Origin: a virus
Lineage: Duplodnaviria > Heunggongvirae > Uroviricota > Caudoviricetes
Reading direction: 5' to 3' (one strand)
Length of the DNA stretch: 6,590 nucleotides
IMG/VR virus record: IMGVR_UViG_2654587711_000006
The notes under the pieces were generated by a model, which was not told the DNA's origin, made no database searches, and saw nothing but the letters and a program-made list of their open reading frames with translations. Below, piece by piece: positions 1-6,590 of the stretch (position 1 is the stretch's first letter; each line of letters starts with the position of its first letter). The position numbers were made by a program, and so were the translations under genes.

Positions 1-228
1 TCAATGTCGCGTAAAGGTAACTGTTACGACAACGCTCCGATGGAAAGCTTCTGGGGAACGCTGAAAAATGAGAGCCTGAGCCACTATCGTTTTAATAACC
101 GGGATGAAGCCATCTCAGTAATACGGGAATACATTGAGATTTTCTACAATCGTCAGCGTCGTCACTCTCGTCTGGGGAATATCTCCCCGGCAGCCTTCAG
201 GGAAAAATATCATCAGATGGCTGCTTAA
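1..228 (+). CDS. IS3-family transposase OrfB (DDE integrase), C-terminal fragment; 5' part is outside the window
   Basis: Translation ...SRKGNCYDNAPMESFWGTLKNE...YIEIFYNRQRRHSRLGNISPAAF matches the conserved C-terminal block of IS3-family OrfB proteins (GNCYDNA.ESFF..LK ... YNR.R.HS.LG..SP) as I recall them. The frame is open to the window edge. Confidence 0.8.
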   Translation, partial: SMSRKGNCYDNAPMESFWGTLKNESLSHYRFNNRDEAISVIREYIEIFYNRQRRHSRLGNISPAAFREKYHQMAA

Positions 229-658: not shown

Positions 659-994
659 ATGAAGTGGATTGTGATTGATACAGTTATCCAGCCATCATGC
701 GGAATATCTTTTTCAGTCATATGGAGTAAAATAAAATTAATAATCTGGTATCAATCGGATGCTTTCTTACCTCCTGAAAGTATATTTACACTGACTCACA
801 CAGGCATCATGCTCAATAACAAAGTGCTACCTGTAACCATTTACAACGTAGTACCATTCAATAAAACATTCTGGAATTCAATCAAAAATAGCCAGGAATG
901 CCCTACAAATACAGATAACGTATTGAATGAATGCTTTAATAACCGTTGCACTCTGCAAATATGTCCTTATGGACTAAAACAACAAAGTCCATAA
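659..994 (+). CDS. Hypothetical protein (111 aa) in AT-rich island
   Basis: A 336-nt open frame in roughly 30 percent GC DNA, where random ORFs are short. Strong Shine-Dalgarno AAGGA 5 nt upstream of ATG 659. C-terminal Cys cluster (C-x12-C-x4-C-x4-C). Stop codon sits inside an 11-bp perfect inverted repeat. No family recognised. Confidence 0.35.
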
Positions 995-1009
995 GGAGTT
1001 TACTCACAT

Positions 1010-1050
1010 CTGACAAAATCAATATAAACAGCCCCTCCGGAGAGGGGCTG
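1010..1050 (-). terminator. Rho-independent terminator for minus-strand (late-direction) transcription
   Basis: Perfect 9-bp GC-rich stem CAGCCCCTC/GAGGGGCTG with a 4-nt loop at 1029-1050, followed on the minus strand by the U-rich tract TGTTTATATTGATTTTG. On the plus strand no T-tract follows. Confidence 0.6.
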
Positions 1051-1441
1051 GAGAGTGGCGCTATGTGCCATTGCATGGTGCCGGGTGCCTCCCGGTGAAT
1101 TCAGTACCAGCACCTGAATCCGCGATTATCCCATATACCTACTCGCTGATTGCCCCTCCGCACAGGGGGATTCACCATGCCAGTTTCTTTTAACAAACTC
1201 CCCGCAAACCAGACAACAGTCAACCGCCTGAATTGTGAAGTATTTAAAAATTTCTCCCGCTAACTGATACCCGGCTAACAGTCTGGCGTTTTCTTTTTCA
1301 GCAACGGGAAAGCAACAACCACCACACCCGCCACCAGCACACCGTCAGCCAGCACTGACATTATCCGGCTGCTGCAATGCCATTCACAAAAACAGTAAGC
1401 AATCACTTTTTACCGTAACAGGTGATAATCCAGATATGTAT

Positions 1442-1795
1442 CTACCCCAGATGAGTAATCCGAAGTTCATCCATACCACAGGTCCTGGCTATTCTGTTGT
1501 ACTCCTGAACAAGAGCAAATAATTCTGAATTAGCAACCATGAACTCATCGCAAACCCTCTGTATAGCATCACTATTCAGAATAATAACGTCTCTTCCCGA
1601 AAGACGATCAGGAGTACAGAACAAAACTGTCAAACGGCTGAAGGCCTTTGCTCGTGCTGCATTGACTATATCAATACGCTGCCTAAGGATGAAACACCCC
1701 GACGCCTCATCAATATTCACTCTACCCACACCATATGAATGATAAATATTTAATGCTGAAAAAACCATTAGACCGTATAACAAACACTCAATCAA
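1442..1795 (-). CDS. Hypothetical protein (117 aa from TTG; about 108 aa from internal ATG near 1768), moron downstream of Q and tRNAs
   Basis: Longest ORF between the tRNA cluster and the 1010-1050 terminator, co-oriented with late transcription. No recognisable family, signal peptide or catalytic motif by eye. Confidence 0.45.
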   Translation of the reverse strand: MIECLLYGLMVFSALNIYHSYGVGRVNIDEASGCFILRQRIDIVNAARAKAFSRLTVLFCTPDRLSGRDVIILNSDAIQRVCDEFMVANSELFALVQEYNRIARTCGMDELRITHLG

Positions 1796-1905: not shown

Positions 1906-1982
1906 TGGCGCGCTGTACTGGATTCGAACCAGTGACCGATTGCTTAGAAGGCAATTGCTCTGTCCGGCTGAGCTAACAACGC
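1906..1982 (-). tRNA. tRNA-Arg (anticodon UCU), argO/argN-like phage tRNA
   Basis: Minus-strand sequence folds by hand into a full cloverleaf: acceptor GCGTTGT/ACAGCGC, D-stem GCTC/GAGC, anticodon stem ATTGC/GCAAT with loop CTTCTAA, T-arm ACTGG-TTCGAAT-CCAGT, discriminator G and encoded CCA. 77 nt. Confidence 0.85.
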
Positions 1983-2082: not shown

Positions 2083-2158
2083 TGGTGGCCCTTGCTGGAT
2101 TTGAACCAGCGACTTGGCGATTATGAGTCGCTCGCTCTCACCACTGAGCTAAAGGGCC
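2083..2158 (-). tRNA. tRNA-Ile2 (anticodon CAU, lysidine type), ileX/ileZ-like
   Basis: Hand-folded cloverleaf: acceptor GGCCCTT/AAGGGCC, D-stem GCTC/GAGC, anticodon loop CTCATAA, T-arm GCTGG-TTCAAAT-CCAGC, discriminator A and encoded CCA. 76 nt. Closely resembles E. coli ileX as recalled; a Met assignment cannot be fully excluded from anticodon alone. Confidence 0.8.
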
Positions 2159-2194: not shown

Positions 2195-2223
2195 AATAAA
2201 AAACCCGCTCGGCGGCGGGTTGT
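2195..2223 (-). terminator. tR'-like rho-independent terminator between Q and the tRNAs
   Basis: Minus strand reads AACCCGC-CGCCGA-GCGGGTT followed by TTTTTATT, a 7-bp GC-rich stem plus U-tract. It lies about 40 nt downstream of the Q stop, the position of tR' in lambdoid late regions. Confidence 0.65.
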
Positions 2224-2260: not shown

Positions 2261-3115
2261 TTATGACGAATTTACCACAGATTCCGGAAAAATCAACCTA
2301 GTTACCTTTTTTAACTGCCGCTCAGCCCATGCTTCTTCAATATCAAACCGAGTCACCAGCGCATCATAGAATTTCTTAACTGTTTTTTCCCATGACGCGC
2401 GTGTTATCTGGTTTGTCACCTCGCATATAGCATTAAATGCCTCCGTTGATGGTAGTCTTTCATAGCCACGACCACCACAACGCTGGCAGTCTCTGATAAC
2501 AGGCATACCACGTTTTACCGACTCTTCACGATGAATGGCGACACCACGCCCACGGCAATCCTTACAGGCGGTGGAAACCTCACCCTTTCCGCCACACTCC
2601 GGACAGGCAACTTTTACCACCTCCCTGACTTTTTTCCATTCTTCCCAGTAAGACGGATACACACCTTTCGTACACTTTGCCCATACCGGCGGCTTACCAT
2701 CCGGATACTGGATCTTGTTTGTAAAAACCTCGCTTTCAATAAATTTTTTTCCGTGACAGCAGGGGCACTGTTTTTTGCTCGCCGCGCTACGGGCATAATC
2801 TTCAAACGCATACGAAGCCATAATACGCATCACTGCCGGTTTTATTTCTGCCGGGAGTTTTCTTAACGCCGCCACGCGATCACACCGACTGAGTGCATAT
2901 TCTGTCAGCAATTCTGTTGCCCGCTCTCTGTCATTCATACTAATGCCCATTTTCCCAAGGAACGCAGAAACCCCCATCTCAGCCCGATTCTGTGTCATGC
3001 CCTGCGCGGCCATCACATCAGTGATACTCAGCGCATCTTTCGACGTTGAGGCCGATGCATCAGTCAGGCCGGGGGATTTTGGGGAGTAGTATTTCGGTAA
3101 ATCTTCCAGTTTCAT
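2261..3115 (-). CDS. Late-gene antitermination protein Q-like (284 aa) with DnaJ-type zinc-finger repeats
   Basis: Canonical position after rusA and before the late promoter, tR' and tRNAs. N-terminus MKLEDLPKYYSPKSP... resembles QuuQ/phage-82-type Q proteins as recalled. Contains CPCCHGKK, CPECGGKG, CKDCRGRG and CQRCGGRG (CxxCxGxG-like). Start overlaps the rusA stop (ATGA). Confidence 0.7.
   Translation of the reverse strand: MKLEDLPKYYSPKSPGLTDASASTSKDALSITDVMAAQGMTQNRAEMGVSAFLGKMGISMNDRERATELLTEYALSRCDRVAALRKLPAEIKPAVMRIMASYAFEDYARSAASKKQCPCCHGKKFIESEVFTNKIQYPDGKPPVWAKCTKGVYPSYWEEWKKVREVVKVACPECGGKGEVSTACKDCRGRGVAIHREESVKRGMPVIRDCQRCGGRGYERLPSTEAFNAICEVTNQITRASWEKTVKKFYDALVTRFDIEEAWAERQLKKVTRLIFPESVVNSS
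2262..2300 (-). promoter_or_regulatory. Candidate late promoter (pR'-like) overlapping the 3' end of the Q gene
   Basis: Minus strand has TTGATT (2296-2291), a 16-nt spacer, then TAAATT (2274-2269), placing the start near the Q stop codon and about 65 nt upstream of the tR'-like terminator. A qut site cannot be resolved by eye. Confidence 0.4.
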
Positions 3116-5026: not shown

Positions 5027-5060
5027 TGAAAATAAAAACAAAAACCCGCCGAAGCGGGTT
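5027..5060 (-). terminator. Rho-independent terminator at the 3' end of the hok mRNA
   Basis: Hairpin AACCCGC-CGAA-GCGGGTT (5043-5060) followed on the minus strand by TTTTTGTTTTTATTTT. Gives an mRNA of about 420 nt from the inferred 5' end, typical of hok mRNAs. Confidence 0.65.
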
Positions 5061-5128
5061 AAGTGTGGGTGCATTGAGGATGCCTGACCCATCAGAGGTG
5101 GCGAGGGATTTCTCCCCCGCCTGGTCTC

Positions 5129-5284
5129 TTACTCCTCAGGTTCGTAAGCTGTGAAGACAGCGACCTCCGTCTGGCCGGTTCGAATTCGTACCTCGCAGAG
5201 GTCTTTCCTCGTTACCAGTGCCGTCACTATGACGGTTAAACAGATGACGATCAGGGCGATTAACATCGCCTTTTGCTGCTTCAT
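5129..5284 (-). CDS. hokD: Hok-family membrane toxin (51 aa), HokD/RelF-like
   Basis: Translation MKQQKAMLIALIVICLTVIVTALVTRKDLCEVRIRTGQTEVAVFTAYEPEE matches HokD (RelF) of E. coli K-12 as I recall it: single TM helix and conserved C...C-E-(I/V)-R motif. The ORF-track entry 5129-5341 is an in-frame upstream extension. Confidence 0.8.
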   Translation of the reverse strand: MKQQKAMLIALIVICLTVIVTALVTRKDLCEVRIRTGQTEVAVFTAYEPEE

Positions 5285-5490
5285 AGCCTGCTTCTCCTTG
5301 CCTTTCGGCACGTAAGAGGCTAACCTAGATTTGCCGTTCATAGATTGAGCCTCAGATTAATGTTAAGCGTCTTGCCGGACGCGTAATGTTAACTGGGGCT
5401 TTTCTCTATCTGCCTTTTGGTGTTCATGCCTGAGACAGATAGCCTCAAGCACCCGCTGCAATTCTACTTAACTCTCCTTTTCCCGCAAAC
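5285..5490 (-). promoter_or_regulatory. hok mRNA leader with upstream promoter (mok-like frame, sok-target region)
   Basis: Minus-strand GCTTGAGGCTATCTGTCTCAGG..., ...AGCCCCAGTTAACATTA... and ...AGCCTCTTACGTGCCGAAAGGCAAGGAGAAGCAGGCTATGAAG parallel the plasmid R1 hok mRNA 5' end, leader and mok/hok start as recalled. TTTGCG/TAGAAT promoter-like hexamers just upstream (about 5487-5459). An intact sok antisense gene could not be delimited. Confidence 0.55.
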
Positions 5491-6293: not shown

Positions 6294-6590
6294 TGAGGTG
6301 TACTGGCAATAGCGGACACTACCATTTGTTCTTTTTTTAAGCAGCCATCTGATGATATTTTTCCCTGAAGGCTGCCGGGGAGATATTCCCCAGACGAGAG
6401 TGACGACGCGGACGATTGTAGAAAATCTCAATGTATTCCCGTATTACTGAGATGGCTTCATCCCGGTTATTAAAACGATAGTGGCTCAGGCTCTCATTTT
6501 TCAGCGTTCCCCAGAAGCTTTCCATCGGAGCGTTGTCGTAACAGTTACCTTTACGCGACATTGATGTTTTCAGACCAGACTGCTCCTGTA
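6294..6590 (-). mobile_element. IS3-family insertion sequence, right (3') end only, inverted relative to the copy at 1-271; body lies right of the window
   Basis: Reverse complement of 6294-6562 matches 4-271 with a single mismatch visible (CAG vs CCG in the transposase, Q to P). The terminal TGAGGTG... is the complement of the ...CACCTCA end. Confidence 0.8.
6337..6590 (-). CDS. IS3-family transposase OrfB, C-terminal fragment; continues beyond the window
   Basis: Same 74-aa C-terminal sequence as the left copy apart from one residue. The frame stays open upstream of the listed Met to the window edge. Confidence 0.8.
   Translation of the reverse strand, partial: QEQSGLKTSMSRKGNCYDNAPMESFWGTLKNESLSHYRFNNRDEAISVIREYIEIFYNRPRRHSRLGNISPAAFREKYHQMAA

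Follow-up and report, generated by a model that had tools for sequence, protein, structure and literature searches.

The closest described relatives of the element analyzed in this work are small RNAs (sRNAs) of the STnc100 family (Rfam RF02076), and above all EcOnc05 of Escherichia coli O157 Sakai, for which a peak of Hfq binding in UV-crosslinking and analysis of cDNAs (CRAC) and a Northern signal of ~222 nt were published (PMC4104026). EcOnc27/sRNA103 (located 3' of stx2B in the Stx2 phage Sp5) and EcOnc06 (Sp17) belong to the same family and share its core and architecture; EcOnc27/sRNA103 is also Northern-positive and Hfq-bound. In E. coli EDL933, 11 STnc100 copies are described, all of them with transcriptome reads, and one (STnc100_4) is Northern-positive. 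The element in question is a cluster of GC-rich hairpins in a 6,590-nt stretch of Caudoviricetes DNA (IMG/VR record IMGVR_UViG_2654587711_000006; the whole stretch is hereafter called the window). With a probability of roughly 0.78, we consider the minus strand of window positions 1238-1020 to be a prophage-borne STnc100-family sRNA gene, the same allele as EcOnc05, whose transcript would be bound by Hfq and act in trans. The analysis established the family membership and strand of the element, its terminator, its covarying helices and a pseudoknot, as well as its identity to an RNA detected by Northern blotting and Hfq crosslinking.

Other phage RNAs resemble this locus in part. PasD1 and PasD2 of enteropathogenic E. 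coli (EPEC) E2348/69, encoded in prophages near Q, were reported to be structural homologues of STnc100, and it is by description that they are likened to the window element here; their stability depends on Hfq, and their targets were captured by RIL-seq, which ligates and sequences interacting RNAs (Pearl Mizrahi 2021; Zhu, Shabalina & Storz 2026 preprint). According to the 2026 preprint, they have diverged too far for BLAST, and their seed regions are not those of STnc100. StxS, the early-termination sRNA of the pR'-tR' region of Stx phages, is also a unit of a promoter, a short RNA and a terminator, and its terminated product binds Hfq; it differs in locus and sequence, and serves as a functional analogy should the RNA act both in cis and in trans. 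The anti-sRNAs AgvB and AsxR (RF02702/RF02703), RNAs of 51-60 nt, are encoded on the opposite strand of the same moron region, where STnc100-type genes usually have them as convergent partners. In the window no Rfam match to either was found at E <= 1, so their presence on the plus strand was rejected; a gene for an IraM-like protein sits there instead.

Identity and anatomy of the element

The Rfam scan of the window gave a full-length RF02076 match at 1209..1020 on the minus strand (model positions 1-206 of 206, 132.4 bits, E 7e-30), well above the curated gathering score of 47. Moreover, window positions 1238-1030 are identical, in 209 of 209 nt, to Sakai 1179716-1179924, i.e., to the EcOnc05 locus of prophage Sp4, and this identity spans the module from the leader to the terminator stem. 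The EcOnc05 Northern probe (Tree et al. 2014, PMC4104026) corresponds to window 1117-1151 on the plus strand, which means that it detects a minus-strand RNA, and published STnc_100 quantitative PCR primers match window 1160-1179 and 1087-1106. Both loci belong to the late region and share their orientation, each with prophage tRNA genes upstream. They differ in the sequence after the terminator stem (U-tract UGUUUAUAUUG in the window, UUUCUUAUGG in Sakai), in what precedes the sRNA (a DUF3927 gene in the window, a tRNA terminator in Sakai) and in the convergent partner (iraM in the window, an anti-sRNA-type gene in Sakai). The parts of the element are as follows:

1020..1238, minus strand: sRNA module, with the 3' end in the U-tract (~1020-1028) and an uncertain 5' end (~1237, ~1190 or ~1181)
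1181..1250, minus strand: 5' leader/promoter region, with the A-rich stretch AAAAGAAAC at 1190-1182
1073..1180, minus strand: conserved structured core, closed by helix P1
1073-1080 with 1173-1180, minus strand: P1, GCAUGGUG/CACCAUGC (inverted repeat I17; in the RNAalifold consensus)
1154..1170, minus strand: P2 (hairpin 3), CCCCCU-GUGC-GG-A-GGGG
1144..1150, minus strand: 5' strand of the pseudoknot, AUCAGCG, pairing with the P4 loop
1097..1121, minus strand: P4, central hairpin with arms 1114-1121 and 1097-1104, GGAUUCAG / CUGAAUUC
1105-1113, minus strand: P4 loop, carrying the 3' strand of the pseudoknot, UGCUGGU, at 1106-1112
1081..1095, minus strand: P5 (hairpin 2), CCGGG-AGGCA-CCCGG, directly abutting the 3' strand of P1
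1051..1072, minus strand: linker between core and terminator, AAUGGCACAUAGCGCCACUCUC, hypervariable between alleles
1020..1050, minus strand: intrinsic terminator (hairpin 1), 9-bp stem CAGCCCCUC/GAGGGGCUG with loop UCCG, then UUUAUAUUG

The terminator was also recovered by the terminator scan (minus-strand stem 1050..1029, 9 bp, 7 of them GC, followed by TTTATATTGA), and its stem is the terminal helix of the Rfam model. The linker is a candidate base-pairing (seed) and Hfq-contact region. EcOnc27 and EcOnc06 differ from the window in the central insert, the linker and the terminator, the core of EcOnc27 being 119 nt long and its linker AGUAUACAGAGAUUAGGCAUAUACCAAG. After correction of a ~135-nt coordinate shift between genome versions, the Hfq-CRAC peak of EcOnc27 mapped to P5, the 3' strand of P1, the linker and the terminator.

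Judged by its sequence, the hairpin element is one already known (Rfam STnc100, i.e., EcOnc05), so the observation of the first-pass annotation is correct but not new. Its three hairpins lie where they had been placed: the perfect 9-bp stem 1029-1037/1042-1050 (inverted repeat I11 of our scan), CCGGG-TGCCT-CCCGG at 1081-1095 and CCCCT-CCGCAC-AGGGG at 1154-1169 (plus-strand letters). The first had been taken for a terminator standing apart from the other two. It is a terminator, but that of the sRNA itself, with the T-run on the minus and not on the plus strand, and all three are helices of one minus-strand RNA, to which the closing helix 1073-1080/1173-1180, the central hairpin 1097-1104/1114-1121 and the pseudoknot (1106-1112 with 1144-1150) have to be added. 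The stretch 1029-1440 indeed holds no open reading frame (ORF) of at least 60 aa in the ORF list, but the ~390 nt described as ORF-poor contain a 43-aa DUF3927 gene at 1275-1406 and are fully accounted for by the ~230-bp sRNA module, this small protein gene and short spacers. Among the options offered for the hairpins, the sRNA was the right one, given the Rfam STnc100 match and the sequence identical to the Northern-verified, Hfq-bound EcOnc05, whereas REP-like repeats and a structured 3' untranslated region (UTR) did not hold. The discrete transcript that was to be sought is published for the identical sequence in Sakai, and the compensatory base-pair changes to be expected in homologues are abundant in the covariance-model alignment described below.

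The motif said to be shared by two of the hairpins, GCCCCTCCG, does occur exactly twice in the window (1031-1039 and 1152-1160), and none of 200 shuffles contained two or more copies (chance expectation 0.04). A special role of this 9-mer was not supported: P2 stays constant, whereas the terminator is exchanged from allele to allele and from genus to genus. Anti-terminator pairing of GCCCCTCCG (3' arm of P2 against 5' arm of the terminator) was likewise rejected, as other alleles and genera carry unrelated terminators. With linkers unrelated and terminators exchanged, GCCCCTCCG is a trait of this and several other E. coli alleles and is not conserved in the family.

Covariation and the pseudoknot

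Homologues were sampled from 120 viral contigs (by the 3' core) and 91 loci of bacterial genomes taken as one genome per species (by the 5' core). Only nested helices went into the covariance model R1, which detected 136 copies in 99 sources (an 8-kb locus often had 2-5 of them), and copies from other genera score above threshold with Rfam's own RF02076 model as well. The core of the window allele scores 103.4 bits against R1. Covariation was measured on 128 distinct copies by cell counts, not by event-based statistics, in the covariance-model alignment (A3); a MAFFT alignment (A2) was dropped for one-column shifts in P4. Every copy has a strict two-part core, consisting of UGGUGAAUCCCCCUnnGCGGnGGGG, a variable insert of 40-85 nt, and ACCGGGAGGCACCCGGCACCA.

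It was revealed that the structure is paired in 83.4% of cells, compared with 75.2% in shuffles, and that the covariation score is 0.261, compared with 0.127 in shuffled alignments and 0.03-0.09 in slid controls; none of 500 shuffles reached the observed values, so the helices of the model are kept by compensatory change. In P1 and in P4, all eight pairs are changed on both sides (90% and 86% of cells paired, respectively), and six covarying pairs of P4 were already present in the earlier RNAalifold consensus. P2 and P5 are both 99% paired, with rare compensatory variants in the former (CCUUUC/GAAAGG, UCUCCU/GGAGGAG) and with UCGGG/CCCGA and CUAGG/CCUGG in the latter, whose loop AGGCA is essentially invariant among copies. 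G-U pairs are frequent (e.g., 48 at columns 119/190); as these would turn into A-C mismatches if the plus strand were the RNA, the RNA strand is fixed as minus. The strand assignment thus rests on the terminator, the G-U covariation, the Rfam match and the polarity of the probe, folding energetics being not discriminating.

The segment following P2 (1144-1150, AUCAGCG) is complementary to the P4 loop (1106-1112, UGCUGGU), and the same pairing is formed by different letters in other alleles, e.g., CUAGAC/GUCUAG, UUUGAUC/GAUCAAA, CUGGUGAU/GUCACCAG, ACUGGAUA/UAUCCAGU and GCCAGUCUG/UGGACUGGC, strand swaps included. Counted in a fixed register of the model-derived alignment, only 40.6% of the pseudoknot cells are paired, because the register shifts by ~1 nt between alleles; the test was therefore made register-tolerant, with four controls. 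Over 102 distinct copies the mean longest helix was then 6.19 bp, compared with 4.38 +/- 0.11 when loops were permuted between copies, where none of 500 trials came as high; decoy windows gave 3.76 and reversed loops 4.01. When each pseudoknot helix class was represented once (n = 79), the values were 6.32 and 4.43 +/- 0.13, and 71 distinct helix variants of at least 5 bp were counted. This pairing is absent from the Rfam consensus structure of RF02076, and the 2026 preprint comparing PasD with STnc100, which used RNAalifold, does not mention a pseudoknot. A covariation-supported pseudoknot in a strict two-part core hence seems to be new relative to the Rfam model and the literature searched. 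It should improve models of the family and guide mutagenesis, as should the two-part core.

Outside the core the picture is different. Among 38 representatives with the same core there are at least eight unrelated linker types, and terminators are likewise exchanged between alleles; the allele-specific linker before the terminator fits a variable base-pairing region. The late region of the K-12 prophage DLP12 contains neither the core motif nor an R1 match, and its RNA IpeX was rejected as a relative.

Transcript, mode of action and alternative explanations

The 5' end of the RNA is the least defined part of the module. When independent contexts of the module are compared (behind a tRNA terminator, behind DUF3927 or behind other genes), the homology starts with TTTTAAAT..TCACAATTCAGG, at window 1250-1238. 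Three promoter candidates were read from the sequence:

1246-1241, minus strand: TAAATA
1223-1218 and 1200-1195, minus strand: TTGACT, 17-nt spacer, GAGTTT
1216-1211 and 1192-1187, minus strand: TTGTCT, 18-nt spacer, TAAAAG

Published Northern sizes are ~222 nt for EcOnc05, ~177 nt for EcOnc06 (Sp17) and ~235/247 nt for EcOnc27 (PMC4104026). A start near 1237 gives ~216 nt and fits the 222 nt of the identical EcOnc05, and the internal TTGACT-17-GAGTTT gives ~170 nt and fits EcOnc06. The TTGTCT-18-TAAAAG candidate, with a start at P1, was weakened, as its box lies inside the context-conserved block, its -10 lacks the final T and the identical EcOnc05 runs at ~222 nt. In other genera, a canonical sigma-70 promoter with a -10 box ending 2-7 nt before P1 was found in 20 of 124 copies (2.0 expected), and in those copies P1 is the very 5' end of the RNA.

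In the proposed mechanism, the sRNA gene belongs to the late operon of a lambdoid prophage, where it lies in the moron region with Q, a short pR'-tR' unit and two tRNA genes upstream, and would release a discrete transcript of ~170-220 nt. The RNA consists of a leader of at most ~55 nt, the compact conserved ~108-nt core, a short allele-specific single-stranded linker and a strong intrinsic terminator, the core comprising the closing helix P1, the hairpins P2, P4 and P5, and the pseudoknot that links the P4 loop to the segment after P2. As published work on identical and related alleles suggests, Hfq would bind and stabilize the RNA via the 3' linker and the terminator. Base-pairing via the variable linker and/or the A-rich leader would provide the action in trans, and the invariant pseudoknotted core may serve as a stabilizing scaffold or a protein-binding domain.

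Several points weigh against assigning an sRNA gene of this kind. The expression evidence for the EcOnc05 sequence comes from Sakai and not from the window locus, and the literature holds no STnc100 allele with a validated target; the effects of sRNA103 on fimZ and espA are overexpression phenotypes whose mechanism is not clear, and they cannot be transferred to the window allele. None of the leader candidates passes the criteria of the consensus promoter scan, and the differing published sizes of the alleles imply different 5' ends. Thermodynamic significance of the minus-strand fold was rejected (z = -1.5; 14 of 200 shuffles fold equally well), the plus strand scoring lower (z = -3.06), and the evidence for a real structure is comparative, not energetic. 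In other genera, some members stand directly in the 5' leaders of genes and have no terminator. Finally, the core is invariant in sequence, pseudoknotted and ~108 nt long, and base-pairing alone would require far less structure of an sRNA; this hints at an additional or different function.

Another reading takes the core as a cis-acting sensor or leader element. The core would be a riboswitch-like aptamer, an attenuator or a domain binding a protein or RNA polymerase, controlling read-through or a downstream gene, and the abundant short RNA would be its terminated by-product, possibly also acting in trans like StxS. Such a role, which we regard as unlikely, agrees with the complex fold with its sequence-invariant stems and loops, with the promoters that place P1 at the 5' end of transcripts in other genera, and with the position of many copies: ~20 of 92 (chromosomal, in at least six genera, among them Klebsiella, Kosakonia, Enterobacter, Raoultella and Citrobacter) precede an ORF for a KdgM-family porin (PF06178) by 100-220 nt, others precede a putative regulator ORF (no Pfam match; MarR-like by eye) by ~30 nt or immediately precede a lipoprotein ORF, in both cases with no terminator between, and the same-strand gene downstream of prophage copies is usually of the DUF1737/NanS-p type or a holin gene. 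In the window, however, the next gene (iraM) is convergent, which leaves nothing downstream to regulate. Alleles have unrelated terminators and linkers, in none of which complementarity to the core is conserved, so that neither an anti-terminator nor an expression platform common to the alleles is apparent; downstream genes are heterogeneous (~20/92 KdgM-linked), and the features expected of a riboswitch of a known class were thus not found, nor is any known riboswitch family among the Rfam matches of the window at E <= 1. Tandem arrays of 2-5 promoter-core-terminator units resemble paralogous sRNA genes, and relatives of the element have documented Hfq dependence and RIL-seq partners. The put RNAs of phage HK022 are two simple stem-loops, and the likeness to them is conceptual only (a structured promoter-proximal phage RNA followed by terminators); R1 found no match in HK022 at E <= 10, so a put-like antiterminator was rejected as a homologue.

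The hairpins could also be the structured 3' UTR of an mRNA for DUF3927 and the 117-aa ORF upstream of it, with the short RNA arising by processing and having no promoter of its own. There is no promoter consensus match immediately upstream in the window, a promoter-like site lies within the DUF3927 ORF (minus strand, 1389..1360), and DUF3927 often precedes this allele. The identical 209-nt module nevertheless follows the tRNA-argO terminator directly in Sakai Sp4, where no DUF3927 gene is present, and the module also stands after stx2B in Sp5, with a Northern band published at each locus (PMC4104026). Together with the homology boundary at ~1250-1238, which is the edge of an autonomous module, and with the canonical promoters abutting P1 in other genera, this makes a processed 3' UTR quite improbable. 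A coding function, e.g., of an ORF starting from an AUG in P1 (MVNPPVRRGNQ...), would explain the conservation, the high ratio of ribosome footprints to RNA in some EDL933 copies (e.g., a ribosomal coverage value (RCV) of 3.21 for STnc100_10), the recurrence of 'VVNPPERRG...' as the first ORF in copies of other genera and a plus-strand pseudogene annotated over the sRNA by the Prokaryotic Genome Annotation Pipeline (PGAP). Yet the reading frame differs between alleles through 1-nt indels just after P2 (GGGGCA-AUC vs GGGGCAUAUC) and inserts that are not multiples of three, substitutions compensate for one another within base pairs and are not synonymous, and ribosome coverage is low in most copies; the coding hypothesis for the core was rejected on the frame-breaking indels, and its probability is close to nil. 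Just as improbable is a dispersed repeat, similar to repetitive extragenic palindromic (REP) or enterobacterial repetitive intergenic consensus (ERIC) sequences, or a DNA-level recombination site, in either case with no RNA function. The copies are indeed dispersed: the element occurs in up to 12 places per genome, clusters with up to five copies per 8 kb in other genera and sits at junctions of mosaic phage modules. These copies are prophage sRNA genes, however, and not REP elements: the G-U covariation is strand-specific, the element has its own terminator, RNAs are detected, and position and orientation are fixed in late operons.

A broader proposal joins an Hfq-bound sRNA with a sensing core. 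The core might be a ligand- or protein-sensing domain of an unrecognized class, Enterobacteriaceae-wide, acting as a cis 5' leader of KdgM porin, lipoprotein and putative regulator genes; in prophages it would be joined to a terminator, and the terminated product would double as an Hfq-bound sRNA with an exchangeable seed. We put this forward as a speculation that is rather unlikely to hold in full. The use of the same core as a gene leader in several genera does seem to be new relative to the literature searched.

Distribution and genomic neighbourhood

The RNA was found in 2860 of 5426 complete E. coli genomes, and 7862 of 7876 E. coli matches are on chromosomes. For the window alone, the result is routine annotation: the prophage sRNA gene is a known one and very common, about half of complete E. 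coli genomes carrying it. Besides Escherichia, the element was found in Shigella, Citrobacter, Klebsiella, Raoultella, Enterobacter and Kosakonia, as well as in Leclercia, Superficieibacter, Trabulsiella, Atlantibacter and Phytobacter, among others. STnc100/EcOnc/PasD RNAs adjoin Shiga toxin genes, and in a machine-learning study, single-nucleotide polymorphisms in one allele ranked among the best predictors of haemolytic uraemic syndrome. The conserved core with its exchangeable linker, the arrays and the KdgM-leader copies suggest a modular RNA, in which the function of the core (stabilizer, protein binder or sensor) is a testable question.

Tandem or clustered arrays consist of 2-5 complete STnc100 units, often ~257 nt apart, each with its own linker and terminator; the linkers and pseudoknot sequences of array members differ. 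In Superficieibacter, Leclercia, Enterobacter and other genera they adjoin phage holin genes on their upstream side. In Leclercia prophage regions, Rfam matches to isrI (L199 5617-5713 and L154 4609-4706), an Hfq-binding RNA, lie beside STnc100 copies, which suggests further clustering of sRNAs in this genus. Copies linked to KdgM carry a covarying conserved small hairpin, CUGCnnUUUnGCAG, and a box, UUGUACCUUUGGA, just before the ribosome-binding site; the spacer in Klebsiella contains the conserved hairpin and no promoter that is evident by eye. The loci concerned are:

Arrays, with coordinates: L142 6370-7001, L153 2834-3208, L175 1920-2299, L199 5470-6546, L005 2326-3350
Further arrays: L140, L162, L134, L158, L201
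KdgM-linked copies: L151, L181, L182, L145, L190, L203, L127, L136-L138, L143, L183, L188, L210, L135, L161, L165, L169, L177

In the window, the genes on the minus strand follow in the order hok/sok, a DUF968-like ORF, a RusA-type gene, Q, a promoter-terminator unit (~2290-2200), two tRNA genes, the 117-aa ORF, the DUF3927 ORF and the sRNA gene (the labels DUF968-like and RusA-type were taken from the annotation of a related locus of E. coli 042). The sRNA gene thus occupies the moron region of a lambdoid prophage, with Q/pR' on one side and the lysis genes on the other. The 99.5%-identical locus of E. coli 042 continues with holin, lysozyme and lysis genes; the window itself is cut in its downstream part by an insertion sequence (IS) fragment. 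The neighbouring genes are:

2261-3115, minus strand: Q antiterminator (PF03589)
1442..1795, minus strand: 117-aa ORF, upstream neighbour (ORF list; no Pfam match)
1275-1406, minus strand: DUF3927 small hydrophobic protein, 43 aa (PF13064, 95.6 bits against a cut-off of 25, E 1.7e-27)
659..994, plus strand: iraM-like anti-adaptor gene (an iraM paralogue; PGAP annotation in 042), convergent with the sRNA gene

The 117-aa ORF is annotated as 'hypothetical protein' in many E. coli genomes, and together with DUF3927 and the sRNA it fills the region between the tRNA genes and iraM. The DUF3927 ORF is a small protein gene separate from the sRNA, and a DUF3927 coding sequence (CDS), WP_000562553.1 (PGAP), occupies the same position in E. 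coli 042. Its homologues upstream of other copies show conservative substitutions; they are longer and have two hydrophobic segments (...LRLAAVALLLFLVVMVDF..SRIMSVLADGVLVAGVVVVAFPLLKKK...), while the N-terminus of the 43-aa protein of the window differs (VIAYCFCEWHCS), and this protein may be an N-terminally remodelled or truncated variant.

Convergent sRNA pairs were described in the moron region of eight Sakai prophages (PMC4104026), and iraM here takes the position of the convergent anti-sRNA partner found in other prophages. It has no obvious plus-strand U-tract terminator, and its transcript may run antisense into the terminator and core of the sRNA. A perfect 12-bp inverted repeat, TCCTTATGGACT / AGTCCATAAGGA, at window 964-997 on the plus strand overlaps the iraM stop codon. 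At the 042 locus (NC_017626.1), the annotation lists no ncRNA feature, and PGAP places a plus-strand pseudo 'hypothetical protein' CDS over the sRNA core (window 1065-1190); a 'hypothetical protein' lies under the sRNA match in other E. coli genomes too. This plus-strand pseudo-CDS is probably a systematic mis-annotation of STnc100 loci.

Right after the Q stop codon, at 2200-2295 on the minus strand, a promoter-like TTGATT-16-TAAATT is followed ~50 nt further on by a strong terminator at 2221..2202, AACCCGCCGCCGAGCGGGTT, and then TTTTATTG. By its layout, this unit looks like a pR'-tR' short transcript of the StxS kind ahead of the tRNA genes; a Trp_leader match of Rfam in the same place is weak (25.7 bits, below threshold). 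The window has two tRNA genes at this position and Sakai Sp4 has three (ileZ-argN-argO). In the window, the first (2083-2158, minus strand) was called Met(CAT) by ARAGORN, its RefSeq homologue being tRNA-Ile (ileZ-type, presumably lysidine-modified), and the second (1906-1982, minus strand) is tRNA-Arg(UCU).

The window is bracketed (1-265 on the plus and 6325-6590 on the minus strand) by the 3' end of an IS3-family transposase gene, present in two inverted copies. Their 74-aa ORFs (4-228, plus strand, and 6337-6561, minus strand) differ at one residue, and an identical start, MVVSAIASTP, is shared by the ORFs adjoining both flanks. The left copy cuts short a DUF1737 (NanS-p N-terminal) ORF at 225-413 on the minus strand. 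On the same strand, a sok antitoxin RNA (5039-5126, 112 bits) adjoins a hok-type ORF (5129-5341), and just downstream a weak isrK-like match (5279-5454, minus strand, 25.7 bits, below threshold) includes a terminator-like hairpin, AACCCGCTTCGGCGGGTT.

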